This document shows positions 18,342-38,253 of a stretch of DNA of 64,000 bases, in pieces. The stretch is from Nitrospinota bacterium. GTDB lineage: Bacteria > Nitrospinota_A > UBA7883. The notes beneath the pieces are model-generated. The model searched no databases. It was not told the DNA's origin and saw nothing but the letters and a program-made list of their open reading frames with translations. Position numbers and translations under genes: made by a program. Each line of letters begins with the position of its first letter. The stretch's first letter is position 1. The DNA is taken from assembly GCA_029881335.1 (NCBI GenBank), contig JAOUMU010000001.1, forward strand, positions 35,172 through 99,171, given 5' to 3'.

Positions 18342-18389
18342 ACCGAAACCTCCTTTATCTAATTAATCGCAATTATGCGTGTTCGACAA

Positions 18390-19958: not shown

Positions 19959-20725
19959 TGATGTTCCGCCATTACCCGAGGCTTATGCCCCGTGTAATCG
20001 TACAGAAAGATGATGACCTTCCAGACTTCCTCTTCACTTAGCAGATGGTGCCAAATCGGCATGGCCGATATCCAGGGAGTTCCCTCCGAAGGCAAGCCCG
20101 GACCGCCCGTGCTTATACGCCAGAAGACGAAAGACTCCGTCAACTGGGCGATGGTGCCGATATCCACAAAATTGGCCGGCATTGGGTTGAATCCTTCCGC
20201 ATAGGGGCCCTTGCCCAGCATCATGTCGCCATGGCAGAAGTAGCAGTTCTGGTAATAAACCTTACCGCCCTCTTCCGAGTGCTTGGCCAAATTCGCCGTA
20301 TCCTCGCGGAAGGGATTTTTTAAAGTCTGCAGGTTGTAGGATTTCCCCCACGCCTTTGCGGCGGATGGCGGCGCAGGATGCACCGACCGCAGTTCCACTG
20401 GCGCGTCGAAAGTGGGCTTAACGTATTGGTACGCCACGTAGGCCCCGAATAGCCCCACCACCAGTATGACTCCCATCCGGAGCCTTCCCTTCGCAGGATT
20501 GGTGTAAAGATCCATGACTGGACCGATCGAGGCGTTATAGCCCTCCTCCGAGAAAGAATTGATCAGCAACGCTCCGGCCACCATGAAGAACACATACATC
20601 TTCATGACCGAAGTGGGAACCACCGGCCAAGTCCCAGGATGCAGCACAGACCCCACCAAGGGGACTCCGAATTTAAGCAACAGGTACCCAACAAGCACCG
20701 TTATCCAAGGTTTCAGTAATTTCAT
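19955..20725 (-). CDS. membrane-anchored (3 TM) monohaem cytochrome c
   Basis: Three N-terminal hydrophobic helices, then NCYFCHGDMMLGKGP with a methionine ligand region (WISAMPIW). Confidence 0.65.
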   Translation of the reverse strand: MKLLKPWITVLVGYLLLKFGVPLVGSVLHPGTWPVVPTSVMKMYVFFMVAGALLINSFSEEGYNASIGPVMDLYTNPAKGRLRMGVILVVGLFGAYVAYQYVKPTFDAPVELRSVHPAPPSAAKAWGKSYNLQTLKNPFREDTANLAKHSEEGGKVYYQNCYFCHGDMMLGKGPYAEGFNPMPANFVDIGTIAQLTESFVFWRISTGGPGLPSEGTPWISAMPIWHHLLSEEEVWKVIIFLYDYTGHKPRVMAEHH

Positions 20726-20742
20726 CAGATAAACCTACCCCC

Positions 20743-21582
20743 TTATTTCTTGCCCGCCAGGGCGTCGACGATCATATTCATTTCCGCAACCGTCATCTTC
20801 CCCGCGTAATCGTCAGGCATCATGTCGGCATCGAACTCTTCCACAATAAAATCATTGGGCTTCAAGATCGATTCGACTATATACTTCTCCGCGGACAAAC
20901 CCTTCACTCTTTTGCCTGCCGTGGAACTCATCTTCGTCAGATCGGGGCCGATATCGCCTCCTTCTTCCACACCAGGCACTATGTGGCAGGAGAGACAGTC
21001 GAACTTGGCGAAAGCCTCCGCCGCGTTCTCCGCCACCCTGATCTCCTCTGGAGCATCATCAGCCGGCGCTCCCTCATCCCCCGTAGGCAGAGGCACTGTC
21101 ACCTCCACGCCAGCCGTATTCTGGAGAAACGCGATAACCGCGTTTATCTCCACTTCTGAAAGCCCGATGGCGCCCTTGCTGACGTCCGGCATGGGGCTAA
21201 TGGTATCGTTTGACCCCTTCTTGCCGAACCCCTCCACCACCATCGCCGAAACGTCTATCATCGATTCGCGGATATACTCCTCAATGTTCGTGGCCTTTCC
21301 CTTGTAGCGGGGATCCTTGATCCGCTCCATGGATACGGAAGCCACCGGCTCCAGAAGCGGGGCGCGACCGCCCACAGGATTGTGGCACAGGGTGCATGTC
21401 CCCTTGCCGTTGTAGATCTTCTCGCCAACGGCGATAAACTGATCCATGGTAATGTCTCCGCCCAGCTTCTCCTCCACGGGAGGCGCCTCCGGCACGATCA
21501 GCGGAAGGCCGAACGTGGTGTATCCGGCGAACCCGCAAATAACCGCCAGGCTGAAAACAACAATTTTAAGTAAAGCTTTCAT
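20743..21582 (-). CDS. dihaem cytochrome c with an N-terminal anchor or signal
   Basis: CTLCHNPVGG and CLSCHIVPGVEEGGDIGPDL. 279 aa. Confidence 0.7.
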   Translation of the reverse strand: MKALLKIVVFSLAVICGFAGYTTFGLPLIVPEAPPVEEKLGGDITMDQFIAVGEKIYNGKGTCTLCHNPVGGRAPLLEPVASVSMERIKDPRYKGKATNIEEYIRESMIDVSAMVVEGFGKKGSNDTISPMPDVSKGAIGLSEVEINAVIAFLQNTAGVEVTVPLPTGDEGAPADDAPEEIRVAENAAEAFAKFDCLSCHIVPGVEEGGDIGPDLTKMSSTAGKRVKGLSAEKYIVESILKPNDFIVEEFDADMMPDDYAGKMTVAEMNMIVDALAGKK

Positions 21583-21592
21583 CTATACCCCC

Positions 21593-23536
21593 TCAGTGCC
21601 CCGCCTCTTGCTCTTCCTTATTCTTGGCGGCCAGAATCGGCATCCAGAACATGAAGAACACGAGCGCCATGAATATCATAACTATGATGGTTACCACCCA
21701 TGCCGCGTAGGGCAGAGTGGGAGTGAACGCCTCTATAGAGTTATCGCGGAACACGGTGTACACGTGCCAGTGCTGACGGATGGCGGACCGGCAATAGCCC
21801 ATCAGCCCCATCAGCCACGTAAAGGAGACCGCAAGCATGAACAGGGCGTACTGCGCCCGGTCCGGCATATGGCCCCACCGGAACACTCCGATATCCTTGG
21901 CCCCCCTGAATTCCAGCGTCTGGAAAACAATACCCAACACACAGACCACCGCCGTGGTGCTCACCTGCGGTATCGACAGCCCGATCCGGATGTTGGCGGG
22001 AATCCAGTAGCTGTATACACCAAGAAACACAATATTGACAATGGCTGCCGTAAAGAGCGCAATCTGGATCGGCAGTCCGTTTCTGGCCCAGAAACCGTCA
22101 CCCGCAGGTCGTGAATTGCTCCGCATGAACAACTGGAAGCTTAAAAACGTGGACAATATCAGGATATTGACCGCCGTATTTTTCGCCGCCATGACTCCCA
22201 GCGGACCCAACACGGAGTGATGCGCCCCGCCGATCTGCGAAAGCTCCTTACTGTTCATGATCAGCGTATGGGGAGTGAACCACGTGAGAAACGCGATCAC
22301 GATAATGATCCCCAGCGGTTGAATGATGTAGTAGAACCTCTTGGAAGCTTCCGTGCGGCCCAAAGAGCACCAGAGGTAGTAGTTGGCCGACAGGAATATG
22401 GCCCCGATCAGCACCGCCTGCAGAATAAAGAGCCAGGCAAAGACACCACCCATCAGGGTGATACCCATCTGCTGCGAATAGTCATAAACCTCCTTGGTGA
22501 GCCAGTATCCCGCGAATGGCAACGGCAGAAGGCCGGCCATGGCGATAATGAACGAGGTGTACCCCATCCAGTCGTAGTGGGCCTTCTCCTCCGCCGAGCT
22601 GGTGGTAATAAACTTGAACGCCGCATAGGCCGCCGTCAGAGAACCACCGTAGGCGATGTTGGCTATGAACCGGTGCAGGTTCAGCGGATTCCAAAGCTTG
22701 CCATGAATCGCCGCCCAGGAGTCGCCCAGGAACTGGCCCTCCGGCCCAATCCCCGAGGGCGCCATCATGAACGAGGCCCAGGAGTTGGAAAGAACCATCA
22801 ACACCATGCCGGAGCCGTTAAGCCCCAAGCCCAGGCCCAGGTGCAACCACTTCAGACCCGGCGAGGAACTCATCTTGTCCCACCCGTAATAATAGGTGTA
22901 AACAAAGAAGCTCTCCGCGAAGAACATCAAGGCGTAAATGATCATCGTCTTGCCAAAGACAGAGGTCATGTACGCCATAAAATCCGGATAGAAGACCACC
23001 AGCAGGATCGAAAGCAAGCCTCCAAAAGAAGCCGCCAGTGAAAACCCGGTCATGGTCACCTTCATAAACTCGTGCGCCATATGGTCGTATCGCTTGTCCC
23101 CGGAGAGGACACCGATAAGCTCGATCACCCACACGAAGATGGGCACTCCCAGCACGAAGGCGGCGAAGAACAAATGAAGTTGCGCCGCAATCCAAACAGC
23201 CAGGCGGCCGTCAACCCCCGCCACCCGGGGATAGTCCTTCTCCTCCAGAGCGGGAGTGGTCATCGGCTTCCAACCCTCGTCGGCCGCCTCCTCCCCTTCC
23301 GTCGCGGCCCCTTCGGCAGGCGCCATCTCTGCGGAGGCTTCATCATGTGCAGGCTGCGCGGCCTCATTGGCCCACGCCTGCCCGGCAAAGAATCCCGCGC
23401 CATCGGACATGGGAGCCAGGCCCCCAGCCAGAACGACCATGAGGAACAGGCTCCCCACAAGCGCGAGAAACCGGCCTCCCTTGTTTTTTTCCTTCAGCCG
23501 GTCACAAACGCCGGCGCTCTTGGTCAGCTTTGACAA
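21593..23536 (-). CDS. cytochrome bd-like (CydA-related) polytopic membrane protein; first gene of the cytochrome operon
   Basis: 647 aa with about 14 predicted TM helices. The first helices resemble CydA helix 1-2 (W..AAQLHLFFAAFVLGVPIFVWV...). The CydA GRQPW signature is absent and no cydB is adjacent. Residues 40-110 are an Ala/Glu-rich extension. The call rests on topology and partial motif similarity only. Confidence 0.5.
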   Translation of the reverse strand: MSKLTKSAGVCDRLKEKNKGGRFLALVGSLFLMVVLAGGLAPMSDGAGFFAGQAWANEAAQPAHDEASAEMAPAEGAATEGEEAADEGWKPMTTPALEEKDYPRVAGVDGRLAVWIAAQLHLFFAAFVLGVPIFVWVIELIGVLSGDKRYDHMAHEFMKVTMTGFSLAASFGGLLSILLVVFYPDFMAYMTSVFGKTMIIYALMFFAESFFVYTYYYGWDKMSSSPGLKWLHLGLGLGLNGSGMVLMVLSNSWASFMMAPSGIGPEGQFLGDSWAAIHGKLWNPLNLHRFIANIAYGGSLTAAYAAFKFITTSSAEEKAHYDWMGYTSFIIAMAGLLPLPFAGYWLTKEVYDYSQQMGITLMGGVFAWLFILQAVLIGAIFLSANYYLWCSLGRTEASKRFYYIIQPLGIIIVIAFLTWFTPHTLIMNSKELSQIGGAHHSVLGPLGVMAAKNTAVNILILSTFLSFQLFMRSNSRPAGDGFWARNGLPIQIALFTAAIVNIVFLGVYSYWIPANIRIGLSIPQVSTTAVVCVLGIVFQTLEFRGAKDIGVFRWGHMPDRAQYALFMLAVSFTWLMGLMGYCRSAIRQHWHVYTVFRDNSIEAFTPTLPYAAWVVTIIVMIFMALVFFMFWMPILAAKNKEEQEAGH

Positions 23537-24501: not shown

Positions 24502-25968
<1,467 letters not shown>

Positions 25969-25980
<12 letters not shown>

Positions 25981-26645
25981 AAGAGCTTTCCCTGCTGGTG
26001 CAGCATGGCGAGAACGTCCAGGCCGTTTCCTGCGCCGAGAAACTTTTGGCCCAGTCGTGCCCCATGGAAGATATCGTAAAGGCTCTCTCCGATGGCCTGG
26101 AAGTTCTCCGCAACAAGTGCACCATAGAAAACTTTCAGTTGCTCGACGTTTTACTTGCCACCAGGGCCATGGTGGAGGTGGTGGATGAATGCCTGGCCAG
26201 AAAGCTCCAGAACGAATTGGACAATCTGGCCACCACCCACGAAGCCACCCAAAGCGCAGAGCCGACCAGGACTTTGGTCATCGGCACTATCCAGGGGGAT
26301 ATCCACGATCTTGGAAAGCATATTGTGGCCACCTTGTGCAGATTCAAAAACTTGCGGGTAATAAATCTGGGCAAGGATGTTTCCGTGGAGCAGTTCGTGG
26401 ACACAGCCATCGCCGAGAATGCCGATTTCATTGGCGTCTCCAGCCTTATGACAGTCTGCCTCTCCAGGATAAGCGAGATAAAAAATGAGCTGGCGCGGCG
26501 GGGACGAAACGAGATTACGGTCGTGGCAGGGGGTGGCGCCGCCCAACAAAGCTCGCCTGACAGGCTCAATGTCGATTATGTCGCACACGACGCTTTCGAC
26601 GGGCTCGATTATTTTCTCAGCGACATCCTTCCAGTTAAAAGTTGA
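25969..26645 (+). CDS. cobalamin-binding corrinoid protein (MtaC/MtbC-type: helical cap plus Rossmann B12-binding domain)
   Basis: DxHxxG motif (GDIHDLGKHIV), SxL (SSLMT) and GG (VVAGGGA). The ATG at 25969 overlaps the last codons of the regulator. The longer track ORF from 25767 is rejected because it lies inside the regulator gene. Confidence 0.75.
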
Positions 26646-29383
26646 ATTCCACAGAGAGAATACAAGCTGTCATCGGCTTTGGCCGGGTGGATAGGCCACC
26701 CGTGGCCCCGGAGCTTATCGCGGTCACGGCCACCATCTGTGGCGCGGCGGTGGGCGATTATGTCAAGGATGGCGCCGTTATCGCCCAATGCCAGATGGAA
26801 GCCGCACGCATAACCGGCTCTGATGCTTTATTCGCCGCCGCCGACCTGTGTGTGGAGGCGGAAGCCCTGGGATGCGAAGCCCATTTTCCCCGGAACAACT
26901 ACCCGCATATAAAAAGCCCTATCGTCCACTCCTATTCAGACCTGAAACAGCTTCGCCTTCCAGATCCCACCTCGGATGGAAGGATGCCCCAGATACTGAA
27001 AGCCGTGCGGCTTCTGGCTGACGATTCGGATGGCCGCCTGGTCCTCGGCAACGCCGTAGGACCCATCACCATGGCTTCCAGAATCATGGATATAGAGAAG
27101 ATGCTCTATATGATAGTGGATCAGCCAGATAAATTCAGGGAGATAATCGAGTTTTGCGAAGGTGTCGCCAGCCGGTTCGTCGACGCGATCCTGGAGGCCG
27201 GCGCCGACGGAATATTGATCTTTGATCCTTCAGCTTCCCCGGCGCTCCTGCCACCCAGGATTTTCCGCGAATTCGAGCTGGAGCCGATCCGCCGCATCCT
27301 GGCGGGGGCCAAGCAAAAAAATCCATCCGTAGTCACCTGGTACTCTGTAGCGGGCCCGGTCCAGACCAACACCGCCATCATCTCCGCAGTGGGGGCCGAT
27401 GTCACCACGGTGGATTACCCCGTACCGCTGCAAACCGCCATGGAATACTCCGGCCACACAGTGATAAACGGCAACATCAGGCCCGCCCTCTTTCTGGAAG
27501 GGACGCCCTCGCAGGTATATGACGAGGCGATGACACTTTTAGACCAAACTCGCCTGTCGGAGCGATTCATACTCGGAAGCGGCTGTGAAATCCCGATCAA
27601 CTCACCGGCAAGGAACATAATGGCCCTGCGACGCGCAGCCAATGATCACGCCTCCCAGATTACCCAGATCAACGAACCAGCGGCAGGGAAAGTCCGGGCG
27701 ACGTTTCACCCCCACAACCGCGCCATTTATGTGGAGACAGGCCAGACCATTCTGGAGGCGGCCGCCATGGGGGGCGCCCCCATCACCACATATTGCGACC
27801 TCACCGGTGTATGCGCCGAATGTGTGGTGACCGTGTGCAATGGGAAGGTCTCCGCGCTGGACATGATTGAAGAGGCCCAACTGGGAAGCCTGGGCGAAGG
27901 GGGAGGAAGGCTGGCCTGCCTCGCCAAAATCCAGGGAGACGTGGAGATCTACGTTCCCTTTTCCTCGCGCCGCATCCCGGACAAGGCTTGCGCCCCTGCC
28001 CAACTTTTCGACGAATCGACCTGTGCCGATTCCCACTCGTCGGATTTCGACCCCGTGTTCCCCCCCATGCGGGAGAAGGCCAGGATCTCCGCCGCCGATC
28101 ATGGCTCCAGGCTGCTTCATCAGGATAATTTGGGCGCAGGGGCACCTTGCGGGGGCAATTTGCCCTGTCATGGGGCGATGTCCCGCTCCTCGTTCGCCGT
28201 GGCGGTGGATATGTCTGGTGAAAACGCCGTGGCCTATGTCCACGACATTGGCAGCGCTGAATTCCGCCACGCAGGCTCCTTCCTGGGCCCGGTGGCCGCC
28301 GTGGGGCTCAATTCCGCTGAAATCGATACCAGAAGAGCCTTGGACCCTCCAATAAGCCGCAAACTGCGGGAAGAGTCCACCCGGCTTTTCAATTCCATAG
28401 TCAACTGGCTTTACGAAAGCCACTCTATAATGCCGGAGCGAGTACGGGGCCTTCTGGTCACCGGCTGCCCCATGGCCGACGATACCTTGCGGCCCCCCGG
28501 CGAGTCCCTGCCTGGAGAATGGGCGCAAATCACCTGCGGAGGGATCGCCGAAGCGCGGATGTCCGACTATCCCGGCCTGAAGGTGCTTATGTGGCCTAAA
28601 CCACCCCACCGATTCGGCGGCGCATCCAGAGATGCCGCATTCATCCTTGCCACCATGCCCTCCCCCGCTGCTGAACCTGCGCTGTTTATACACCTGGGTT
28701 CATCCGGTTCGATAACCGCCCACTACCAGGGGCGATATTACACCCATCGATTCCCCTTTGGTAATTTGCTGGAGCGCCCTATCCCCGGCGTATCCCGGGG
28801 ATTTTTCAACTTCCTGATTCATGAGGCGCAAGTCGATGGGCGGGGTGTAACCAGTTTCAAAACCTTCAACGGCTCGGCCCCCCTGGGATTGCTGGGTACG
28901 GCCATGGTGGGAGCGGCCGCCGGAATGAAACGCCACGGAATCATCGACGACAAGGGCTTTGTCCAGGGCAAGTGGGCCCCTGTGGTGGAAAACCGATTTG
29001 TGGTGGTTCCCAAGCAAAAGACCGCCGGATACAGCCCTATCACCATCGGCTGGGAAGATATCGACAAGCTGATGATAGGGACGGGAGCATGCTCTCGGGC
29101 CGTATCGGATGTCCTGGACGCTGTCCATCTTTCCCCGGAGCAGGTGGAACGGGTTTTCGTCTCCGGCCCGTTTGGCGTGGTGGCGGACCCGGCGGACCTG
29201 ATTGAACTCGGCTTTATCCCGGATTCGTGGAAGGGGAAAATACAGTTTGTTAAAAACGCCGCAGGGCTGGGTGCGCGGAAGGCGCTTTTCTCTTCCCGGG
29301 CCAGAAAAAGGGCGGTGGTCATAGCATCCTCCATGGCGCCCCTGTCCCAGGCCCCAGGCGCCAGATATGGAGAATCCAAATGA
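26642..29383 (+). CDS. three-domain fusion: MtaA/CmuA-family (URO-D fold) methyltransferase, plant-type [2Fe-2S] ferredoxin, and RACo-type ASKHA ATPase (DUF4445), i.e. a reductive activator of corrinoid proteins
   Basis: Residues 1-340 match the URO-D/MtaA pattern (PVQTNTAIISAVGADVTTVDY, ...GSGCEIP). Residues 350-440 contain C-x5-C-x2-C...C (YCDLTGVCAECVV...RLACLA). Residues 450-913 are Gly-rich ASKHA-like. Start and stop overlap the neighbouring genes by 4 nt (ATGA). Confidence 0.7.
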   Translation: MNSTERIQAVIGFGRVDRPPVAPELIAVTATICGAAVGDYVKDGAVIAQCQMEAARITGSDALFAAADLCVEAEALGCEAHFPRNNYPHIKSPIVHSYSDLKQLRLPDPTSDGRMPQILKAVRLLADDSDGRLVLGNAVGPITMASRIMDIEKMLYMIVDQPDKFREIIEFCEGVASRFVDAILEAGADGILIFDPSASPALLPPRIFREFELEPIRRILAGAKQKNPSVVTWYSVAGPVQTNTAIISAVGADVTTVDYPVPLQTAMEYSGHTVINGNIRPALFLEGTPSQVYDEAMTLLDQTRLSERFILGSGCEIPINSPARNIMALRRAANDHASQITQINEPAAGKVRATFHPHNRAIYVETGQTILEAAAMGGAPITTYCDLTGVCAECVVTVCNGKVSALDMIEEAQLGSLGEGGGRLACLAKIQGDVEIYVPFSSRRIPDKACAPAQLFDESTCADSHSSDFDPVFPPMREKARISAADHGSRLLHQDNLGAGAPCGGNLPCHGAMSRSSFAVAVDMSGENAVAYVHDIGSAEFRHAGSFLGPVAAVGLNSAEIDTRRALDPPISRKLREESTRLFNSIVNWLYESHSIMPERVRGLLVTGCPMADDTLRPPGESLPGEWAQITCGGIAEARMSDYPGLKVLMWPKPPHRFGGASRDAAFILATMPSPAAEPALFIHLGSSGSITAHYQGRYYTHRFPFGNLLERPIPGVSRGFFNFLIHEAQVDGRGVTSFKTFNGSAPLGLLGTAMVGAAAGMKRHGIIDDKGFVQGKWAPVVENRFVVVPKQKTAGYSPITIGWEDIDKLMIGTGACSRAVSDVLDAVHLSPEQVERVFVSGPFGVVADPADLIELGFIPDSWKGKIQFVKNAAGLGARKALFSSRARKRAVVIASSMAPLSQAPGARYGESK

Positions 29384-30417
29384 AAGAAGGTTTTTTCAAA
29401 AAGCTCCTGGACAACGCTTCCGACCTGATCTGGGCCGTGGACATGGAGGGGCGCTTCATATACATAAACGACAACATCAAGGAATGGGGCTACGACAAGG
29501 AGGAGTTGATCGGCCAGCCGCTGTTGAGCATTCTAAACGCCCAGCGGATAGGGAAACGGGAGACCCGCCGCTCCATAATGGGCATCCACCAGACTTACGA
29601 GATGGAGATCGTGGACAAGAAGGGAACCGCCCACAAAGTGGTGGTCAAATCCTCGCCGCTGGAGGAGGAGGGGACAATCGTGGGAGTCATGGGGATCATC
29701 CGCGACATCACGGAGCTGGAGCGACTGGAGAGAAAACTGAAGGATGAGGAACGGCTCGCCTCCCTGGGCCGACTGGCCACCGGCATCGCCCACGAAATCC
29801 GCAATCCCCTTTCATCTGTGAAGATGAACCTTTCGATCCTGAAAAAGCGACTCAGCCCCAAGGGAGTGGATGTGGAGCATTTCGAGATCGCCCAGGAGGA
29901 GGTATTCCACCTGGAGAAGATCGTCAGCGAGCTTCTCGATTACGCCAAGCCGATCACGCTGGATCTGAAGATATGCGACCTGACCCAGTTGATCGATGTC
30001 GCCATTGCCGCCGTGGCGGCCCCTTGCGCAGAAAAAGGTGTCACCATCAGGACGGAGTATGACGGCAGAGGGCACATGGCGCTGCTGGACAAGACCAAGA
30101 TCACCCAGGCGCTGATCAATATATTGCTCAACTCGGTGCAGGCCTCCCTGGAAAACTCGGAGATTTTCGTGGGCGCGGAGACTGTGAAGTTTCCCTCGTC
30201 CGACAGGGCCAGGGTGGTGATTCGCGATCAGGGGTATGGAATCCCGGAGGATAACCTGAAATATATATTCGATCCGTTCTTCACCACCAGAAAGGATGGC
30301 ACCGGCCTGGGACTCTCCATCGTCCGCAACATCGTGGACAACCACGAAGGCTCGATCACTATAGAAAGCGAACAGGGCAAAGGCGCCACCGTGTCCATAG
30401 AGCTTCCCGCGCCGTAG
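29380..30417 (+). CDS. cytoplasmic PAS-domain histidine kinase
   Basis: No TM helix. PAS domain (LLDNASDLIWAVDMEGRFIYIN), H-box (AHEIRNPLS), and N/G boxes (GTGLGLSIV). Confidence 0.8.
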   Translation: MKEGFFKKLLDNASDLIWAVDMEGRFIYINDNIKEWGYDKEELIGQPLLSILNAQRIGKRETRRSIMGIHQTYEMEIVDKKGTAHKVVVKSSPLEEEGTIVGVMGIIRDITELERLERKLKDEERLASLGRLATGIAHEIRNPLSSVKMNLSILKKRLSPKGVDVEHFEIAQEEVFHLEKIVSELLDYAKPITLDLKICDLTQLIDVAIAAVAAPCAEKGVTIRTEYDGRGHMALLDKTKITQALINILLNSVQASLENSEIFVGAETVKFPSSDRARVVIRDQGYGIPEDNLKYIFDPFFTTRKDGTGLGLSIVRNIVDNHEGSITIESEQGKGATVSIELPAP

Positions 30418-30755: not shown

Positions 30756-31250
30756 TCACTTGCCGGTGATATCCCCATACCCGGCGTAAAGGATCTCTTT
30801 TGTGATTCTGCCCATGTGCCGGTTCAGTATCACGCCGTTTTTATCTATGAAATAAGTGCATGGCAGGCCGAACACCTGGAACTCATCTGTGGCCTTGCCA
30901 TCCTCGTCCAGGGCCACCATGAAGGTGAAGTTGTTTTTTTTCACAAACTTTTCCACCAAAGCCTTCGACTCCTTGACGTTTATCATCAATAGCTCCAGCC
31001 CCTCGCCTTTTTTCAGATGATAAAACTTCTCCAGCTCCGGCATCTCCTCGATGCAGGGGACGCACCATGTGGCCCAAAAGTTGATTATCAGGGGCTTGCC
31101 CGCATAATCGCCCAGCTTGATCGGCTTGCCGTTCAATCCATCCAGCTCAAAAACGGGGGCTGGAGCGGGCTTCGGTTTTGGCGGAGCCTCCATGGGCGCT
31201 TCCGGCTGGCAGGCGGCCGTCGTCAGCGCCAGGAACAGCAGGGAGGCCAT
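30756..31250 (-). CDS. TlpA/ResA-like periplasmic thiol:disulfide oxidoreductase (lipoprotein)
   Basis: WATWCVPCIEEMPELE thioredoxin CxxC motif. The start is moved to MASLLFLALTTAAC, which has a signal peptide and lipobox; the track ORF begins upstream at 31370. Confidence 0.7.
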   Translation of the reverse strand: MASLLFLALTTAACQPEAPMEAPPKPKPAPAPVFELDGLNGKPIKLGDYAGKPLIINFWATWCVPCIEEMPELEKFYHLKKGEGLELLMINVKESKALVEKFVKKNNFTFMVALDEDGKATDEFQVFGLPCTYFIDKNGVILNRHMGRITKEILYAGYGDITGK

Positions 31251-31261
31251 TGATAATTTCC

Positions 31262-32128
31262 TCACTGTCCCACCCCCTCCTCGATCTCTTTGGGATATTG
31301 AATGGGCAGCTCCCAGCGGAACACCCTGGTCTCCGGCCCCCCCACGTTCTCTATGCCCAGTTCCACCCACTTTGGGGCGTGCTTCCCGCCGGTGACTTTC
31401 CTGAACCTAATGTCCGCTTCGTAGTGGTGTTTGTCGGCGGTCTGAAATCGCAGCCGCCATGGCGGTATGGTGGACGCCTTTCCATCGGGGGTACGTAGCC
31501 AGGCGATATTATCCAGCTCGGCCAAAGCTACTTCCCCCTCGTGAACGGTGAAGGCGACAATAAAGACATCGTAATCTTTCAGCTGATATTCGTCGATCAG
31601 GTGTTCGGCGCCGATACTTTTCAGGTATTGGGGCGTGGCGAGCACCACATCGCAATATATATCACCCTGCCCCATATCGTTGCGCCACACGGCGTGGTGG
31701 ATCGCCTTGCGCACTTCGTAGGAGTATCCGGACTTGGTGGTGGGATACTTTTCCTCCAGGTAGCGGATTATCACATCCGCCTCCCTCCCGGAGATTTCCA
31801 CCTTCTCCTTCATCCTCATCCGCTCCACCACCTGGATCCACCCGGAAGGGGAGAGAATGGCGGTTATCATGGCAGACTCGCCGTGGCATTGCCGATAGCA
31901 GCGTTTCTGGTACACATATCGCACATCGTCCGTTCCCAGCTCCCTGATGTATCCCAGGTTGAAAAGCTCCAGCCTGACCGCCCGCACATAGGTTCGAGCG
32001 TCCGAATCGAAATCCTCGCGGGAGTCGTAAAACGCAAGGTAGACCAGAGCCACCGCGGCGAAAGCCAACGCGACAACGGCCACTGTGGCTACGGCCATCC
32101 ATTTGACGAGTTTAATTATTATCCTCAT
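31262..32128 (-). CDS. membrane-anchored hypothetical protein with a CX3CH motif
   Basis: N-terminal TM helix. Motif QKRCYRQCHGES is C-x3-C-H, not canonical CxxCH. No other recognisable domain. Confidence 0.35.
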   Translation of the reverse strand: MRIIIKLVKWMAVATVAVVALAFAAVALVYLAFYDSREDFDSDARTYVRAVRLELFNLGYIRELGTDDVRYVYQKRCYRQCHGESAMITAILSPSGWIQVVERMRMKEKVEISGREADVIIRYLEEKYPTTKSGYSYEVRKAIHHAVWRNDMGQGDIYCDVVLATPQYLKSIGAEHLIDEYQLKDYDVFIVAFTVHEGEVALAELDNIAWLRTPDGKASTIPPWRLRFQTADKHHYEADIRFRKVTGGKHAPKWVELGIENVGGPETRVFRWELPIQYPKEIEEGVGQ

Positions 32129-32904
32129 TGACCGGAGGGATATACACAGCGAAATCCGTAATCGTTGAACAGCCTGGCGCCATCGTCGCCCAGCCTGGCG
32201 GCCGCCCGCAACGAGGTACGGGGAGTCAGCCAGGAACCGCCCTTCAAAAGCCGCAGCTTCTTATTCTCGTCATACCATCCATCCTGCCATTCCCACACGT
32301 TGCCTGCCATGTTCAGCGCGCCGAAAGGGCTGGCGCCCTGGGGCCGGGAATCCGCCGGGATCGTGCCGCCGGTCATATTCTCGCCACTCTGTTCCAGGGC
32401 AAAGGAGCCTACCTTCAGCCGGGAAACACCGGTGGACCCCATGAACATCGCCTTTTCAGGATCGAATTCGTTCCCCCAGGGGTACACCCGCCCGTCATCC
32501 CCCCTGGCCGCCCGCTCCCACTGTCGCTCGGTAGGGAGGACACCACCCGCCTTTTTGCAAAACTCGTCGGCTTTGGCCCATGTCACATTCACCACGGGAT
32601 GATCCACCAGGTTGGGAGGATACAGGTGGTCTGCGAATATGGATTTGAACCTCCGGTTTGTCACTTCAGTTTTGTCGACCAGGAATGCCGGGACGAACTC
32701 CTCTCGCTCCGGAGTCTCATCCTTGTACCAAGAAATCCTGGCGCCGGAGCCAGCCAGCAGCTCGGCAAGTTGAGCCTCGTCCGTGCCCAAGGTGGCCTGG
32801 CCGGCGGGAATAAGGATGCGGCCGGAATCGACTTCCTCTGCCCAGACATGGGGGATCACGGCGAAGGCAAGGGTAATTGTTATCAACGCAGGGGCGCCCC
32901 TCAT
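32125..32904 (-). CDS. secreted FGE-sulfatase (SUMF1-like) domain protein, paralogue 3
   Basis: VTNRRFKS, GGVLPTERQWERAARG, YPWGNEFD, GGSWLTP and GFRCVYP. The start is moved to MRGAPALITITLAFAV (signal peptide). That ATG overlaps the upstream stop as ATGA. Confidence 0.7.
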   Translation of the reverse strand: MRGAPALITITLAFAVIPHVWAEEVDSGRILIPAGQATLGTDEAQLAELLAGSGARISWYKDETPEREEFVPAFLVDKTEVTNRRFKSIFADHLYPPNLVDHPVVNVTWAKADEFCKKAGGVLPTERQWERAARGDDGRVYPWGNEFDPEKAMFMGSTGVSRLKVGSFALEQSGENMTGGTIPADSRPQGASPFGALNMAGNVWEWQDGWYDENKKLRLLKGGSWLTPRTSLRAAARLGDDGARLFNDYGFRCVYPSGQ

Positions 32905-33350
32905 TGCTCTGCTCCCTTTCTGCGCGCCTGGATCCAGTCCATTCCGGTCATGATGAATGTATAGACAAGCGCGGTCCATACCAGCGTCACCAGGGTGAAC
33001 AACACCATGTCCTTGACTGGGTAGCCGCCCCTGGAGACCTGATACCACTTTCCGGCCATTCGCTGGGCAGGGGTGAGCATTGCCTCTCCACCGTATCTCT
33101 TAAAGAAATAGGCCATGATTTCCTCTTTGGACATGCCAGCCATCAGTTTGTCGCCAATATTGTTCTTCCATTGCAGGCCGCAGCTCATATGGCAATCCTC
33201 CAGCACCATGGGACACTCGCAGGGGCAGGCAAGTGAATGGGAGACTCCCATGACGGAGTTGTCCGACGCGGAGACCAGAAAGATATATCTGGCGGCCAGG
33301 ATGGTGATTACAACACCCAAGGAGACAGCCCCGACTATGGCCCTGGTCAT
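32901..33350 (-). CDS. small membrane protein with a CPCEC (CxCxC) motif between an N-terminal signal/TM and a C-terminal TM; CcmH-like topology
   Basis: LACPCECPMVLEDC is periplasmic and lies between two hydrophobic segments. It resembles CcmH/PCYCGC-type metal or thiol-handling proteins. Assignment is tentative. Confidence 0.35.
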   Translation of the reverse strand: MTRAIVGAVSLGVVITILAARYIFLVSASDNSVMGVSHSLACPCECPMVLEDCHMSCGLQWKNNIGDKLMAGMSKEEIMAYFFKRYGGEAMLTPAQRMAGKWYQVSRGGYPVKDMVLFTLVTLVWTALVYTFIMTGMDWIQARRKGAEQ

Positions 33351-34111
33351 GACGAAGCCTTCTTCCCCCTATTGCGGCGAAACACCCACACGCCCAGGAA
33401 TCCCAAGGCGCCGATAGCCAGCAATATCTCCCCGGTATGTCCGGCAAACATCCCTGGTGTCGCCATGGCGCTAAACTGCTTTTCCACAGAAGGCATTATG
33501 TCCTCCTTGGAGTAGGAGACAGATATTTCCTTGCCCTGCCCGGCCTTCACCTCCTTGAACAGGTACTTGTAATATTCGAACCCCTCTTTTTCATATGTCC
33601 CGACCCAGCCGGGGCTAATTTCAAAACGCCCTGCCCTGGCGGGCTTTTGCACATGCACTTCCAGAGTGTTGATCGCGTACAGCGCCGGAACCTTGTGGAC
33701 GAATTTGCGGACTGCCCCGCGGATGGGGGAGAAGGGGGCGTATTGGTAGTCGATAAAGAAATCGGAATATGGCAGCTTCACGTCCACCATTTTTTCCGCG
33801 CCTTCGGTCTTTATGTCGAAAAGCTGACAGAAGTGATGCCCGCTCGGCGACAGGCTGCACACATCGGTGAGCTTCGTCACCTCCATCGGCAGACCGAAAC
33901 GCGCCTCGGCGGGGAACTTATTCTTGTCGGCGAACTTGCCCTCCATTATCACCAGCACCTGGCTGCTGTCATACTCCGGCATCAGGGTTACCTTCATGCG
34001 GCCCACCACCAGCCCCTTTTCATAGGCCGCTGCCGCAGGTGACACCACCAGCGCAAAAACCGGTCCCATCGAAACCAGCGCCAGGACCAACAATCTTTTT
34101 ATAGCGCTCAT
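33347..34111 (-). CDS. hypothetical periplasmic protein with a C-terminal TM anchor
   Basis: Signal peptide, CSLSPSGHHFC, and a C-terminal hydrophobic helix. No assignable domain. Confidence 0.35.
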   Translation of the reverse strand: MSAIKRLLVLALVSMGPVFALVVSPAAAAYEKGLVVGRMKVTLMPEYDSSQVLVIMEGKFADKNKFPAEARFGLPMEVTKLTDVCSLSPSGHHFCQLFDIKTEGAEKMVDVKLPYSDFFIDYQYAPFSPIRGAVRKFVHKVPALYAINTLEVHVQKPARAGRFEISPGWVGTYEKEGFEYYKYLFKEVKAGQGKEISVSYSKEDIMPSVEKQFSAMATPGMFAGHTGEILLAIGALGFLGVWVFRRNRGKKASS

Positions 34112-34112
34112 A

Positions 34113-34892
34113 CTATTTCTCCTTCCCCTGGGCGCCGTGGTCCATCTGGCCGTGGTCCATCTGGCCGTGGTCCATCTGGCCGTGATCGTGGCCCGGCTGA
34201 TTTACGAACCTGCCCACCAGGTAGCTTTTATATATTGTCATGTTGTCCGTCAGGATCATCACGCTGATAGCCATCATCACCGCGGCCGCCGCGATCCGGA
34301 CTCCTTTTCGCGCGCCGGATCTACCGGATTTCAGCGCAATCGCCATCAATCCCGCCGCCAGCGCCGAGATGGCCGTTAACTCCCCCACCGTATACATCAC
34401 CAGCAACAGCCCGCCGCGGACCACGGTCTGATCCGCCTGAGTGAGGCCGTATATATAAGTCAGCGTGGGGGTGACGCATGGCTTGTATGCCAAGGCCAGG
34501 GCCCCGCCGTAAATGAAACCCAACACCCTGCCGCCGATCTTGACCGCTGTGGAGGTTCTGTCCAGAGTCAGCGCACCGGCGATATATAGAGCCAGCAGGG
34601 CTATGATCACGCCACCGAACTGGTTTGCTATCGCCACATGCTCAAACACCGCCTTCGAAAACGCCGTGGCGCTCATCCCCATGGTGGTAAAAACCACTAT
34701 GAAACCCGCCGCCGCAAGGGCCAGATTCACGCAAAAGGCCCTCCATGGGCTGACCGATTTCTCCTGGCCACTTTCCAGCAGGGCCGAGCCCATGACATAG
34801 GCCACAAAGAATGGGATCACCTGCATGAGGCAGAAGACCCACACGGAAAAAAAGGCATGTACGCCACCGGCGTACGCTTCGATCAGGGACAT
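34113..34892 (-). CDS. CcdA/DsbD-like transmembrane thiol-disulfide transporter with a C-terminal His-rich (DHGQM)x3 tail
   Basis: Six TM helices. It has the conserved TM1 Cys (FFSVWVFCLMQVIPFF) and TM4 Cys (AYKPCVTPTL) characteristic of CcdA. C-terminus is GHDHGQMDHGQMDHGQMDHGAQGKEK. Confidence 0.65.
   Translation of the reverse strand: MSLIEAYAGGVHAFFSVWVFCLMQVIPFFVAYVMGSALLESGQEKSVSPWRAFCVNLALAAAGFIVVFTTMGMSATAFSKAVFEHVAIANQFGGVIIALLALYIAGALTLDRTSTAVKIGGRVLGFIYGGALALAYKPCVTPTLTYIYGLTQADQTVVRGGLLLVMYTVGELTAISALAAGLMAIALKSGRSGARKGVRIAAAAVMMAISVMILTDNMTIYKSYLVGRFVNQPGHDHGQMDHGQMDHGQMDHGAQGKEK
34137..34190. repeat. 3.6 copies of a 15-bp in-frame tandem repeat encoding the His-rich tail
   Basis: GTGGTCCATCTGGCC repeated exactly at 34137, 34152 and 34167, then a degenerate fourth unit. 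Confidence 0.9.
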
Positions 34893-34912
34893 AGGTAAAT
34901 ACTACTCCGTCT

Positions 34913-35566
34913 TTACGCTGATGGCGGCGATGCGCCGGGTTGGCCTTGCGGCATTATGCTTTTCAGGCCATCCTCCAGCTGGCCGAGCCGTTCCACCTTC
35001 CCCACGAAGAACGATTGGATCACTCCATCCCCGTCCACGAAGACCGTGGTGGGCGTGATACTGACCCCCACCCGGTCGGCGAACATCTGGCCCCCTTCCA
35101 CAGCCACGGGGAATTCTAGCCTGTGGGTTCTGGCGAACTTTTCCAGGTTCTCCTGGGAGTCCTGGATTCCCACGAACATGACGTTTAGCCCGGAGGCTTT
35201 TCCCTCCTCCACGGCCTTTCGAATATTCGCCACCGACTCGTGGGAGCATGGGCACCAGTTGGCGTAGAAGTAATAGAGCATCGGCTTGCCCATAAATCCC
35301 TGGCGCGACGCCTGGCCGCCACCCAGCAAGCTCAGGTTGAACTCAGGAAGGGCGTCCCCATGGTCCAGCAGCCTGGCTTCCACGGGGCGTGCGGAATAGT
35401 CATATACAGCGTTTAATAGCACAGCCGCGGCGGCCAGCAGGATCAGCCTGTTCACCTTCCGCGAAAAGTCAACCGTCGCCGCTGTCCCGGCGGGGGTGTC
35501 CAGCTCCCCCACGCCCTCAATGCTTGTGGTTCGGGTCGTCATGATTATGTTGATTCGCTCCGCCAT
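34913..35566 (-). CDS. thioredoxin-fold (TlpA-like) periplasmic protein with an atypical WCPC motif
   Basis: Its length, the anchor, and ANWCPCSHESV where a TlpA CxxC would sit. The track ORF overlaps the upstream gene by 50 nt, so the start is uncertain. Confidence 0.5.
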   Translation of the reverse strand: MAERINIIMTTRTTSIEGVGELDTPAGTAATVDFSRKVNRLILLAAAAVLLNAVYDYSARPVEARLLDHGDALPEFNLSLLGGGQASRQGFMGKPMLYYFYANWCPCSHESVANIRKAVEEGKASGLNVMFVGIQDSQENLEKFARTHRLEFPVAVEGGQMFADRVGVSITPTTVFVDGDGVIQSFFVGKVERLGQLEDGLKSIMPQGQPGASPPSA

Positions 35567-36164
35567 CGGAAGGGTTCATCTCCATGGCCGGAGGCTGGAC
35601 AGGCTGCGGATTATTCTCCGGTGTCCCCAGCTTCCTTTGCATCTGATCCAGTCCGGTCATGTGTCCGATCTTCAGCTCCTCCCTGCCAGAGAGGTAAGCC
35701 TCAATTGGGCGTTGATCCACCGGCGTCAGGAACAACGCCTTGAGCCTGTCGTAATGGCCAATGAGCTTCAATATATCCTGCTCCCGGAAGTCCTTCTCCC
35801 AGTTGCCCACCAAAGCGTTCCACACCTGCACAATGGCCACTGCCTGGGGCTCTGTTATATTTGTGAACTCCACGTTAGGCTTAGTCTTGCGATAATTTTC
35901 TATGAACGTCTGCATATGAGGAACCACCGCCACGAATGGTGGACCACACCTGGGACAGTACATTTTTATCCGTTCGTCGGAATGACACTGGGTGCATATC
36001 CTCCTGGCCATGTCATAGGCCTCCAGCGGTTGATATTTTATATAACCGTTCGCCTTGGCCTCGCTGACTATCCGCTGGCTAAGCGGATTCGGAATGAATA
36101 TTACACCCAGAACCAGCAGCGTCAACACGCCCAGCGTAATTAACACAATGCGTTTTTTCTTCAT
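35517..36164 (-). CDS. membrane-anchored monohaem c-type cytochrome with an additional CPRC pair
   Basis: N-terminal TM, CTQCHSDERIKMYCPRCGPPF, and a His-rich C-terminus (HNHDDPNHKH). It is the first gene downstream of the sigma54 promoter. Confidence 0.5.
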   Translation of the reverse strand: MKKKRIVLITLGVLTLLVLGVIFIPNPLSQRIVSEAKANGYIKYQPLEAYDMARRICTQCHSDERIKMYCPRCGPPFVAVVPHMQTFIENYRKTKPNVEFTNITEPQAVAIVQVWNALVGNWEKDFREQDILKLIGHYDRLKALFLTPVDQRPIEAYLSGREELKIGHMTGLDQMQRKLGTPENNPQPVQPPAMEMNPSDGGANQHNHDDPNHKH

Positions 36165-36336
36165 AGGATGCTTTCTCTCTCCACCGGTTTAGACTTCCTG
36201 AAGTTTCATTCTATATAAGTTTTCCCTTTTGTTCAACCAATTGAGGGAGCAGACATAGCACCAATCATGTTACACAGAGAAATATTGCCTTTATTATTAA
36301 TGCGCAATCATGACGACTTTTGACACTCACAAGATG

Positions 36337-36352
36337 AGCAATATTTGTGCCG
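36337..36352 (-). promoter_or_regulatory. putative sigma54 (-24/-12) promoter driving the minus-strand cluster 36164->30756
   Basis: The minus strand reads CGGCAC-AAATA-TTGCT. The invariant GG and GC have canonical spacing and it matches TGGCAC-N5-TTGCW at 10 of 11 positions. It lies about 175 nt upstream of the start at 36164. Two sigma54 EBPs are encoded in the window. Confidence 0.45.
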
Positions 36353-36492
36353 GCTTACCATAATTCCAAATCCTGAACGCCACCGCGGCCATTGAGTTGA
36401 TTACCCAGCCCAGCGAAAGTATAATCAGCCAAAAGGCGCTCCCTCTTGTATATTCAGCCAGACGACACGGTGGCGCCGGTTGCTGGAGGCAA

Positions 36493-38253
36493 ATGAATCC
36501 CGACACGAAGAGAGTGGAAATAGAAGACAAGCCCCTGGGCTGGGCGATCTGGCCAAATCCCTGGGTGAACCTGGCGGCGGGGGTGGTCATGGTAGCCTTG
36601 GCGTTGGCGCTAATTTCCTTTAACGAGACGAGGGCTGTGGCTGGTGTTCAGGCGCTCACCAGCGGAGTGCTCCGCGCCGTCTCCCTTCCGGACAACGTCA
36701 TCTTTCCCGCTTATGAGGGGAAGCTGACCCATGTCACGGGCCGGCTATCAGGTCCCGCGGAAGTGGTGGATCCAATTTTCAAGGTAAAGGCTGAGTGTGT
36801 GTGCCTGATCCGGCGGGTGGAAACCAACTTGTGGGTGGAACTGGAGGAGACAGGTAAGGGTGGCCTGACCGGCTACAGCTACCAAACCCGCTGGACGGAG
36901 AAATGGATCGACTCCACCCGCTTCGTCAAGAGGGGGCACGATAATCCGGACAAGAAATTATTTCAATCCATGGGCTTCACCTCGAAAAAAGCCGGTCTGG
37001 GGGTGTTCAAGATCGATCCGCAGCTTTGCGCTGTTCACGATAGCCCCAGGCCCTTTCAGCTGACAGAGACTGATTTTGCGAATATGCCGGATAAAATGCG
37101 GATGCGCATGAAATTAAGGGCGGGAGCGCTGTACCAGAGTTTCAATCTGGACCACCCCGCCATAGGCGACACCAGAATATCCTATTGGCTGGTTGAGCCT
37201 GGCCCCGTCACCGCTCTGGCTTTGCAGACCGGCGACACGCTTTCCCCCGCAAAGACCGCCTCCGGCGAATTGGTGATGGGTCTTAAGAAAGGGGAGGCGC
37301 CGCTGGAGCAGATGTACAATCCTCCTTCGGCCCACGGAGTGGGGATGGGTGTTATCCTTCGGCTGGCCGGGTTGTTTGCGGCCTGGTTCGGGCTCATGCT
37401 GGTTATGGATCCCCTCTATCTGTTCATATCGCTGGCCCCGAGACTTCATGGCCTGCTGGAAAGAAGCTCTGGAAGGGAAACCGGCCTGGCCTCGCTCGGC
37501 TCCGGGCTTGCCGTCATGGCGCCTGCATGGATATCGTTTCAGCCTCTTGTCACCGGTGGATTGGCGCTGGCCGCGGCGGCGTCCCTGGGACTGATCGCGT
37601 GGGATATAAAAAAGGCCACGCCTAAGCCGCCACCACCACCGCCCGTCAAAAAGTTTATCCCGGAGGGCGTTACCGGCCCATATATAGACGGCTCCGGCTT
37701 GCCGGGTGGCGCCAGCTTGCCTGATGATGGGGTCTATAAACCTAGAAAACCGGCTTTTTTCGCGGTTCCGGCAGACGCTCCCGCAAAAGGCGCGGAGGAG
37801 CCTGCGGGGCCAGGCGGGGTATACAAGCCAAAACGGCCTCCATCTTTCAACGCGGCGGCCCCACGGGGAGAGATGGACCCATCCCACCCGGAGAACCAGT
37901 GGCCCGAGGCCTGGCCGAAGAGCGGAAGGAGCCATAGGATCGAGCGGGCGTTCGTGTTTCATGAACGCGACAGAATGGATAAAGGGAAAACCGCCGAGAT
38001 GATCCGCCGCAGGGAGACAAACCCTGGTGGTCTGCCACCGAAGGTTGGAAACATCACAGGTGTCCATGTGGGCGCATGGCCCAATGAAAAGGAGAAGCTC
38101 AACTTGCTGATCCGAAAAAGTGTGCCCGCTTATCTGAAGAAACATCCAGATGCTCCCCGCTATGACGACAAAGCCATCTACTCAATGAAAGTTTGGACAG
38201 GTAGCGATGACTTGTTGGGAAGGTACGCCGTGCTTCTGGTCATCCCCAAGTGA
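36493..38253 (+). CDS. polytopic membrane protein of unknown function with a Pro-rich linker and a duplicated GVYKP(R/K)(K/R)P motif
   Basis: The start is moved to the ATG at 36493, which has GGAGG 4 nt upstream. It has an N-terminal TM, an approximately 300-aa extracytoplasmic domain, three TM helices, then PPPPPPV and two GVYKPRKP/GVYKPKRP motifs. Topology resembles the TMEM43/DUF1625 family, tentatively. Confidence 0.4.
   Translation: MNPDTKRVEIEDKPLGWAIWPNPWVNLAAGVVMVALALALISFNETRAVAGVQALTSGVLRAVSLPDNVIFPAYEGKLTHVTGRLSGPAEVVDPIFKVKAECVCLIRRVETNLWVELEETGKGGLTGYSYQTRWTEKWIDSTRFVKRGHDNPDKKLFQSMGFTSKKAGLGVFKIDPQLCAVHDSPRPFQLTETDFANMPDKMRMRMKLRAGALYQSFNLDHPAIGDTRISYWLVEPGPVTALALQTGDTLSPAKTASGELVMGLKKGEAPLEQMYNPPSAHGVGMGVILRLAGLFAAWFGLMLVMDPLYLFISLAPRLHGLLERSSGRETGLASLGSGLAVMAPAWISFQPLVTGGLALAAAASLGLIAWDIKKATPKPPPPPPVKKFIPEGVTGPYIDGSGLPGGASLPDDGVYKPRKPAFFAVPADAPAKGAEEPAGPGGVYKPKRPPSFNAAAPRGEMDPSHPENQWPEAWPKSGRSHRIERAFVFHERDRMDKGKTAEMIRRRETNPGGLPPKVGNITGVHVGAWPNEKEKLNLLIRKSVPAYLKKHPDAPRYDDKAIYSMKVWTGSDDLLGRYAVLLVIPK

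Follow-up and report, generated by a model that had tools for sequence, protein, structure and literature searches.

The window analysed here is a stretch of 64,000 nucleotides (nt) from a Nitrospinota bacterium (assembly GCA_029881335.1, contig JAOUMU010000001.1, positions 35,172 to 99,171). Near its middle lies a cluster of eight genes for periplasmic and membrane-bound proteins with several Cys-rich motifs. According to the open reading frame (ORF) list of the window, all eight ORFs share one orientation, on the minus strand between positions 30756 and 36164. They are named g1 to g8 in the order of their predicted transcription:

35517-36164, minus strand: g1, a membrane-anchored periplasmic protein with an N-terminal transmembrane (TM) helix, a CTQCH motif, a CPRC motif and a His-rich C-terminus
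34913-35566, minus strand: g2, a membrane-anchored protein with a ResA-like thioredoxin fold, a Redoxin/AhpC-TSA match and a WCPC site
34113-34892, minus strand: g3, a CcdA-type TM electron transporter whose periplasmic tail is rich in His and Met, (DHGQM)3 (DHGQMDHGQMDHGQMDHG)
33347-34111, minus strand: g4, a protein with a signal peptide, an all-beta periplasmic domain and a C-terminal TM anchor
32901-33350, minus strand: g5, a CcmH-family protein with a CPCEC motif and a C-terminal TM helix
32125-32904, minus strand: g6, a secreted protein of the FGE-sulfatase fold
31262-32128, minus strand: g7, a protein with a TM anchor, a cytochrome-c-like helical domain (CYRQCH) and a C-terminal Ig-like beta-sandwich
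30756-31265, minus strand: g8, a TlpA/ResA-type periplasmic thiol:disulfide oxidoreductase with a WCVPC site (169-amino-acid (aa) gene call)

The initial annotation of this DNA had described eight co-directional genes with these motifs, and all of the ORFs and motifs were recovered in their places. Four start/stop overlaps chain the five genes from g4 to g8. Two of them, the ATGA overlaps at 33347-33350 (g4/g5) and 32901-32904 (g5/g6), had already been noted; the additional two are an ATGA at 32125-32128 (g6/g7) and a GTGA at 31262-31265 (g7/g8). The gap between g3 and g4 is 1 nt. Hydropathy and the positive-inside rule placed all soluble domains, including the His/Met tail of g3, in the periplasm. 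No CcsBA/ResBC-like haem lyase was present among the window ORFs scanned against Pfam, as had been remarked before, and the combination of haem lyase, CcdA and ResA that marks a system II cytochrome c biogenesis locus does not occur among these ORFs. Nor was CcsBA/ResBC one of the 25 families found most often in the flanking regions of related loci.

Relatives of the cluster were gathered in a scan using one genome per species. In total, 87 were obtained, of which 80 loci were kept, and the eight proteins were mapped onto these by tblastn. The order g1-g2-g3-g4-g5-g6-g7-g8 was kept in at least 16 distinct Nitrospinota loci, across which the identity of g4 ranged from 46 to 82%. The named relatives found in a word-indexed search were Nitrospinota/Nitrospinae proteins or proteins from hydrothermal-vent metagenomes. 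Judged from these comparisons, the eight-gene arrangement is far beyond chance. Because the overlaps link g4 to g8 and the eight-gene order is kept in all of these Nitrospinota loci, the eight genes are predicted to be a single operon. The comparison of genomes speaks against a set of independent genes without a conserved arrangement, which had been named as grounds for refuting the proposal.

A six-gene core of the cluster, comprised of g4, g5, g7, the TlpA-like thioredoxin, the ResA-like CPC thioredoxin and CcdA, was also found in Nitrospirota, in Zeta-, Alpha-, Beta-, Gamma- and Deltaproteobacteria, and in Magnetococcales. Altogether, at least six lineages besides Nitrospinota carry the core, and its Cys/His/Met clusters are invariant among them. 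A second arrangement, g4-g5-g7-TlpA-thioredoxin-CcdA, was seen in groundwater Deltaproteobacteria, Rhodospirillales, Gallionellaceae/Sulfuricellaceae, Zetaproteobacteria, Magnetococcales and several Gammaproteobacteria. The genes g5 and g7 are neighbors in nearly every locus, and mostly adjacent. The strictest conservation and the tightest linkage within the unit belong to the thioredoxins, CcdA, g4 and g5. The comparison therefore lent weight to the description of the cluster as a periplasmic thiol-redox unit, in the form of a conserved operon-like set with a thiol-reducing pathway. In Gallionellaceae, a CMD/AhpD-like protein related to NCBIfam ‘GroundWater_YciW’ (7e-39) is inserted between g5 and g7 (positions 11320-11901 of locus L089; also in L062, L065, L068, L071, L077 and L087).

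The building blocks of the operon, namely CcdA, TlpA/ResA, CcmH and the FGE fold, are of known kinds. The combination of genes, the altered active sites and the g1, g4 and g7 families have no description in the accessible literature, which did not include the primary paper on the lactonase-type nitrous-oxide reductase discussed below. None of these three families has a characterised member.

The thiol-reducing pathway is made up of g3, g2 and g8. By itself, g3 gave a weak DsbD_TM match below the Pfam cut-off (18.7 vs 27.1 bits). A profile of its orthologues, drawn from all lineages, matched Thermus CcdA (5VKV) at 7e-19 over the full length (positions 2-228), with both Cys residues aligned, and both are invariant among the orthologues; the CcdA/DsbD family is recognised by one such Cys in TM1 and another, in a PC..P context, in TM4. 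Among 18 orthologues, 13 matched DsbD_TM and none matched NicO or TauE. The predicted topology has six TM helices with both termini outside (positive-inside rule); hydropathy showed five of these clearly, and the sixth, which bears a Cys (about residues 123-143), was placed by eye. On these comparisons, g3 is a genuine CcdA-type protein. The alternative assignments as a nickel/cobalt (NicO) or TauE-type protein were rejected on the strength of the CcdA profile match and the lack of NicO/TauE matches, and the CcdA/DsbD-like identity first proposed for g3 was retained.

The orthologue profile of g2 matched ResA (4NMU) at 2e-29. Its WCPCS site was invariant in 19 of the 19 loci examined, across phyla. 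This site is a CXC, one residue shorter than the CXXC by which TlpA and ResA are recognised. The remaining thioredoxin, g8, matched Redoxin/AhpC-TSA at 1e-26 and has the thioredoxin fold, a conserved WC[VLH]PC site and the export expected of the TlpA/ResA type; by its sequence it is probably a lipoprotein. Because its scores lie below the cut-offs for both subfamilies (ResA, 124 vs 170 bits; TlpA equivalog, 70 vs 230 bits), g8 is classed as TlpA/ResA-like, and specific orthology to TlpA or to ResA is not established.

At the head of the operon, g1 carries the pattern C-x2-C-H-x8-C-x2-C-GPPF and Met84, which are invariant in all homologues. No cytochrome c family in Pfam matched g1 at an E-value of 0.1. 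Its sole cytochrome-family match was SorB in NCBIfam (E 0.028), zinc-ribbon matches were also weak, and its profile found no solved relative in the structure search. The initial annotation of g1 as a monohaem cytochrome c could therefore not be demonstrated; its motifs suggest that it may be either a monohaem cytochrome or a Cys4/His metal site.

The Pfam CcmH profile (PF03918) matched g5 with 32.4 bits against a cut-off of 25, and g5 aligned with the redox helix (LRCPKC region) of E. coli CcmH. In place of the canonical LRCxxC motif it has ACPCECP and DCxMxCG, and the five Cys residues of this pattern are invariant across phyla. No Pfam family matched g4. Its structure model was confident (predicted local distance difference test score 85) and showed an all-beta domain between the signal peptide and the C-terminal TM helix, for which the fold matches were generic. 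The g4 segment DVCSLSPxGHHFCQ is invariant, including C85, H93 and C95 of a C-X9-C/His site. The g4 superfamily had 1278 representatives at 50% clustering, and there is a protein in which a g4-like domain is joined to a CcmH domain. In distant g4-like proteins (P0272, P0280-P0388), the fusion partners are CcmH, C-terminal zinc ribbons, cytochrome c domains or a rhodanese domain.

In g7, the CX3CH motif and Met104 are invariant, as are H196, H234, H235, D151, D156 and D160 of the sandwich. The protein carries the full set of His/Met c-type haem ligands (C77, C81, H82 and M104). A sequence search of solved structures gave no match to g7; its sandwich resembles Helicobacter pylori CrdA. Finally, g6 matched FGE-sulfatase (PF03781) at 2e-41 and has the fold of that family, with the sequence GGSWLTPRTSL where FGE has GGS-x-x-C-x4-C. 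Its best solved match was the inactive paralogue SUMF2 (4e-21), and it lies inside the cluster only in Nitrospinota and Nitrospirota. The Cu(I) dependence of FGE-family enzymes had been taken to point to copper; since the Cu-binding catalytic Cys pair is absent from g6, this protein was set aside as evidence for copper.

Copper was suggested by other observations. His/Met repeats of the type DHxxM/MDHSxM (e.g., DHGQM and MDHSKM) occur at three places in differing Nitrospinota, all of them periplasmic: the C-terminus of g3, the N-terminus of g4 and the C-terminus of g1. Genes for SCO1/SenC, PCuAC and a third TlpA come after the core in Gallionellaceae, and the Gallionella PCuAC encoded beside the core ends in a similar His/Met tail. 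SCO1 also adjoins the core in Rhodospirillales, Magnetococcales, Gammaproteobacteria and one Zetaproteobacterium, in differing orientations; adjacent PCuAC was seen in the Gallionellaceae.

A further copper protein was found in a scan of the flanks, in which 149 ORFs from 18 loci outside Nitrospinota were compared with Pfam. Families that came up repeatedly were cytochromes c and b, a nos_propeller/cupredoxin beta-propeller, Peripla_BP_6, Usp/PCP_red, ABC_transp_aux, DUF4340 and SCO1. The propeller-cupredoxin protein, of about 600 aa, scored 755 bits, above the cut-off of 700, with the NCBIfam model NF052460 (‘clade III lactonase-type nitrous-oxide reductase’) and aligned with solved NosZ structures including the CuA motif C-x3-C-x3-H-x2-M. 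The gene for this enzyme (L-nosZ; protein, L-NosZ) stands beside the core in about 14 genome loci from Zeta-, Gamma- and Alphaproteobacteria and groundwater Deltaproteobacteria.

The association was also seen from the opposite direction. An L-NosZ profile retrieved 31 metagenomic loci, 23 of which had usable upstream sequence, and core genes directly adjoined L-nosZ in 14 of these 23. On the 3' side of L-nosZ, the recurrent genes were cytochrome b, cytochrome c, a g1 homologue, and an ABC ATPase/ABC-2/GldG-like/DUF4340 set; the g1 homologues (40-49% identity) lie just before the ABC-2 system. In Magnetococcales, a single array without L-nosZ unites both sides in the order cytochrome b - g1 - ABC system - SCO1 - g4 - g5 - g7 - TlpA - thioredoxin - CcdA.

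L-nosZ is divergent from the adjacent core in metagenome-assembled genomes (MAGs) labelled Zetaproteobacteria, Mariprofundus or Mariprofundaceae (L079-L081, L085, L086 and L088), and likewise in the Gammaproteobacteria L069 and L083. These zeta- and gammaproteobacterial loci also encode a 320-aa cytochrome c and a Usp-PCP_red protein. The Mariprofundus group is known for iron oxidation, and its potential for nitrous oxide (N2O) reduction may be under-reported. Usp-PCP_red fusions recur beside L-nosZ and the core in other phyla as well; in L007/L021, the region upstream of the cluster (about 1850-5500) encodes a Usp protein, a radical SAM/SPASM/PCP_red protein and proteins with a PCP_red domain.

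Because the His/Met-rich tails are periplasmic, SCO1/SenC and PCuAC stand beside orthologous cores and L-NosZ is encoded beside the core, copper appears better supported than haem as the cargo of the system. The proposal that the cluster serves maturation of, or metal insertion into, respiratory proteins fits the comparative data, with copper favored over haem and on grounds other than those first given. On balance, we regard it as somewhat probable that the operon is the Nitrospinota version of a widespread, reductant-fed periplasmic module, likely for copper handling on behalf of respiratory copper centres, with L-NosZ, encoded outside the window, as the likeliest client.

In the corresponding mechanism, CcdA (g3) would carry cytoplasmic reducing equivalents across the membrane, and g8, TlpA-like with its WCVPC site, would relay them, so that the copper-site Cys residues of the client and the Cys-rich proteins of the cluster itself are kept as thiols. 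The CPC thioredoxin g2, the five-Cys g5, g4 with its C-X9-C/His site and g1 with its C-x2-C-H-x8-C-x2-C pattern could act as Cu(I) carriers or as specialised reductases. A role in Cu(II) reduction or as an electron relay is conceivable for g7, with its CX3CH domain and His/Asp-rich beta-sandwich, and the His/Met-rich periplasmic tails would capture copper. The client would be an L-NosZ, an enzyme with the two copper centres CuA and CuZ. The layout of the operon, its protein families, their invariant motifs, the periplasmic placement and the gene neighborhoods were observed; that copper is bound, which way electrons flow, whether haem is attached, what g7 does and which enzyme is the client are parts of this proposal that we infer.

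Several observations count against it. Neither L-NosZ nor NosZ was found in the window, a further 3 kb of the contig contained no L-NosZ, and SCO1/SenC (PF02630) and PCuAC (PF04314) were absent from the window even at an E-value of 10. The His/Met tails are sporadic and are missing from the proteobacterial versions. In Gallionellaceae, the core has no L-nosZ within 10 kb; L-NosZ is therefore not the sole client, and where there is no L-NosZ, as in this family, the module probably works on other cuproenzymes. CcdA, TlpA/ResA and CcmH are classical factors of cytochrome c maturation, and g7 has its full haem ligand set. The functional evidence is wholly guilt by association, and no member of the family is characterised.

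Elsewhere in Nitrospinota, the accessory set is likewise a separate operon, with no L-nosZ within 8-30 kb. The genomes DRJW01 (Nitrospinota, L010) and nzgw271 (Nitrospirota, L037) have the cluster and no L-nosZ in the flanks examined, and both have been reported to encode a lactonase-type NosZ-like gene (PMC11033732). Within the window, an ORF of 598 aa at 46687-48483 (minus strand), a predicted membrane protein without a Pfam match, was considered as a hidden L-NosZ and rejected (hhalign probability 0.8%).

A more specific version of the copper-handling proposal is put forward tentatively, as a possibility that we would not yet count as probable. The g4-g5-g7-thioredoxin-CcdA core, together with g1 and the GldG-like ABC-2 system, might constitute a thiol-based maturation machinery for clade III NosZ that is unrelated to NosDFYL/NosR, reduces and metallates CuA and CuZ, and possibly delivers the sulfide of CuZ. 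In that case g5, the CPC thioredoxin and g4 would be new kinds of periplasmic copper carriers.

Other functions were weighed against copper handling. As the foremost alternative, the operon could be a dedicated thio-reduction branch of cytochrome c maturation, which would reduce the haem sites of g7 (CX3CH) and g1 (CXXCH-CXXC) for a housekeeping lyase, encoded elsewhere, to attach haem (compare NrfF of NrfEFG, CXXCK). Such a branch would be in keeping with the CcdA, ResA-like and CcmH assignments, with the pairing of g5 and g7 nearly everywhere, with the invariant C77, C81, H82 and M104 in a cytochrome-like helical domain, and with neighborhoods rich in c-type cytochromes. We nevertheless hold it to be unlikely: a dedicated lyase (CcmF/NrfE or CcsBA) was found neither in nor near the cluster in any locus examined, and g4, the CPC thioredoxin, the five-Cys pattern of g5, the His/Met tails and the adjacency to SCO1, PCuAC and L-NosZ are left unexplained.

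Defence against copper stress in the periplasm, in the manner of ScsABCD or CopC/PcoE, would assign the DsbD-family reductant and thioredoxin-like copper binders to the shielding of envelope thiols. His/Met repeats are typical of copper-resistance proteins (CopA, CopB and PcoA), and their occurrence in cluster proteins agrees with such a role, as do the combination of a DsbD-family protein with several thioredoxin-like proteins and the similarity of the g7 sandwich to CrdA. This function is rendered improbable by the surroundings of the core set, which stands in respiratory arrays (cytochrome b, cytochrome c, bd-like protein and L-nosZ) rather than in resistance islands; efflux pumps, multicopper oxidases and CopC/CopD were not seen in the neighborhoods, and g3 is of the CcdA type, without the periplasmic domains of ScsB/DsbD. 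Very improbable is a role mainly in electron transfer, with g1 and g7 as membrane cytochromes that connect quinol-oxidising cytochrome b/bd-like modules to a periplasmic reductase and the thiol-redox genes as passengers, since the supposed passengers are the best conserved and most tightly linked part of the unit and g1 gave no detectable signal of a cytochrome c fold, even though homologues of g1 lie downstream of L-nosZ, with cytochrome genes on one side and the ABC system on the other, and cytochrome b and bd-like neighbors recur.

The proposed copper-handling module also has possible companions in the window, and these genes lie in the following features:

6760-23536, minus strand: companion array in one co-directional run, with a bd-like protein, c-type cytochromes, cytochrome b and an ABC system
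15166-16437, minus strand: cytochrome b with a C-terminal CXXCH; a 207-aa partner and a 396-aa cytochrome c are in the same array
8181-12872, minus strand: ABC_tran/ABC-2/ABC_transp_aux (GldG-like)/DUF4340 genes, with a NosF/NosY-like ATPase and ABC-2 permease (PF12679) at 11148-12872

The array holds at least six c-type cytochromes and a cytochrome c/EB_dh fusion. Its families flank the core and L-nosZ in other phyla, and L-nosZ itself is missing here. Compared with the bd-like genes that lie close to the core or to L-nosZ in Proteobacteria, the bd-like protein of the window showed 56-59% identity. A tie between the cluster and the cytochrome locus at 15-23.5 kb had been proposed, with the bd-like complex as an example of a client; the tie is supported by the co-localisation of the same families in other phyla, while L-NosZ is a likelier client than the bd-like complex specifically. 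Canonical nosD, nosL, nosR and nosX were not seen in the window, where the NosF/NosY-like ABC pair was the only such component.

Two more FGE-sulfatase paralogues flank a Peripla_BP_6 protein in the group 3433-4296 (minus strand), 4271-5536 (minus strand) and 5606-6256 (plus strand). This group adjoins a dCache histidine kinase (1434-3404), and a sigma54 enhancer-binding protein (EBP) is encoded just beyond the window. A Peripla_BP_6/FGE pair also follows the core in Gallionella (L089). Divergent from g1, a TMEM43-family membrane protein is encoded at 36397-38253 (plus strand); it is found upstream of the cluster in L009 as well.

Three features of the window bear on the regulation of the operon:

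36338-36352, minus strand: candidate sigma54 -24/-12 element cGGCACaaataTTGCt, some 175 nt before the start of g1
36208-36236, minus strand: candidate promoter of the sigma70 type (TTGAAC-17-TAGAAT), some 44 nt before the start of g1
24502-30417, plus strand: convergent operon for a sigma54 EBP response regulator, a B12-binding protein, a URO-D/ferredoxin/RACo fusion and a PAS histidine kinase

The candidate sigma54 element has one mismatch to the consensus. Since chance would be expected to yield 4.6 matches of this quality in a window, the element carries little weight by itself. It is retained as GGGCATGGAATTTGCT in L009, the closest relative (82% identical), and in a scored scan of 21 Nitrospinota loci, about 8 had a similar element no more than 200 nt upstream of g1. 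A search for the exact pattern GGCAC-N5-TTGC in the first related loci gave nothing relevant. Both hexamers of the sigma70-like promoter also lie in blocks conserved with L009, so that in the one relative compared its conservation equals that of the sigma54 element.

In at least 11 Nitrospinota loci, the EBP/kinase operon follows g8 directly, in convergent orientation; in some loci, a PAS-EBP is encoded directly upstream of the cluster. The EBP/kinase operon is a candidate regulator of the cluster and, with its 913-aa fusion of URO-D, 2Fe-2S ferredoxin and RACo (a corrinoid activator), may be a corrinoid-based sensor or regulator. The promoter-like element and the syntenic EBP operon make sigma54 control of the cluster plausible. 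The outright description of the cluster as sigma54-driven goes further than this, as the sigma70-like promoter is conserved equally.

Among known systems, the TlpA - ScoI/SenC - PCuAC (PcuC) pathway, which assembles CuA and CuB in Bradyrhizobium and Rhodobacter, offers the first comparison. There too, a periplasmic TlpA-type thioredoxin, assumed to be fed by CcdA/DsbD, would keep copper-ligand Cys residues reduced; orthologous cores of the present module are physically linked to SCO1/SenC and PCuAC, and the module has His/Met tails resembling that of PCuAC. Unlike that pathway, the window is without Sco and PCuAC, and the module adds g1, g4, g7, a CPC thioredoxin and a five-Cys CcmH-like protein. 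The CcdA-ResA/CcmG-CcmH branch of cytochrome c maturation systems I and II has the same three families (CcdA, ResA-like thioredoxin and CcmH). It differs in that no haem lyase or chaperone is present here, the CXXC of CcmH is changed to CPCEC and CX3C, one thioredoxin has a CXC site, and the present cluster travels with copper proteins rather than with ccm/ccs genes.

ScsABCD, a copper-tolerance system of Salmonella, Proteus and Caulobacter, likewise combines a DsbD-family importer of reductant with several periplasmic thioredoxin-like proteins and a link to copper. In contrast to ScsB, g3 is a minimal CcdA; a DsbG/DsbA-like ScsC is missing, and the context is respiratory rather than one of stress. 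With NosDFY-NosL (NosR/NosX), the cluster has in common that it is probably an accessory set of the NosZ type, with an ABC ATPase and a NosY-like ABC-2 permease nearby. Here the ABC partners are GldG-like (ABC_transp_aux) and DUF4340 proteins, none of NosD, NosL, NosR and NosX accompanies them, and canonical nos clusters contain no counterpart of the thiol-redox core.

The clade III/L-nosZ gene clusters, which a 2025 Nature paper by He et al. (doi 10.1038/s41586-025-09401-4) is said to have described and which are treated second-hand in PMC13477213 and PMC11033732, resemble the operon in that each of its eight gene families turns up again next to L-nosZ, in loci from metagenomes and from Zeta-, Gamma-, Alpha- and Deltaproteobacteria. 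The Nitrospinota set differs from these as a separate operon with an FGE-fold protein and with g1 at its head. In the accessible papers, which did not include the primary L-NosZ paper, clade III nosZ is nowhere linked to genes for thioredoxin, CcdA or CcmH.

Clade III N2O reductases have been recognised only recently. NosZ is considered to depend on the nos accessory genes for the building of its copper centres, and a 2026 paper found clade III nosZ MAGs (n = 4) to lack identifiable canonical nos accessory genes and to have cytochrome and transporter genes nearby (PMC13477213). For the maturation of L-NosZ, the present cluster and its relatives provide a concrete candidate set of about six to eight small proteins. 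The gene set could also serve as a marker for L-NosZ-type respiration in genomes where the gene for the enzyme is unlinked. More broadly, the CcdA/TlpA/CcmH toolkit, usually devoted to cytochrome c maturation, appears to have been re-used here with altered sites (CPC and CPCEC), in a context that points to copper.

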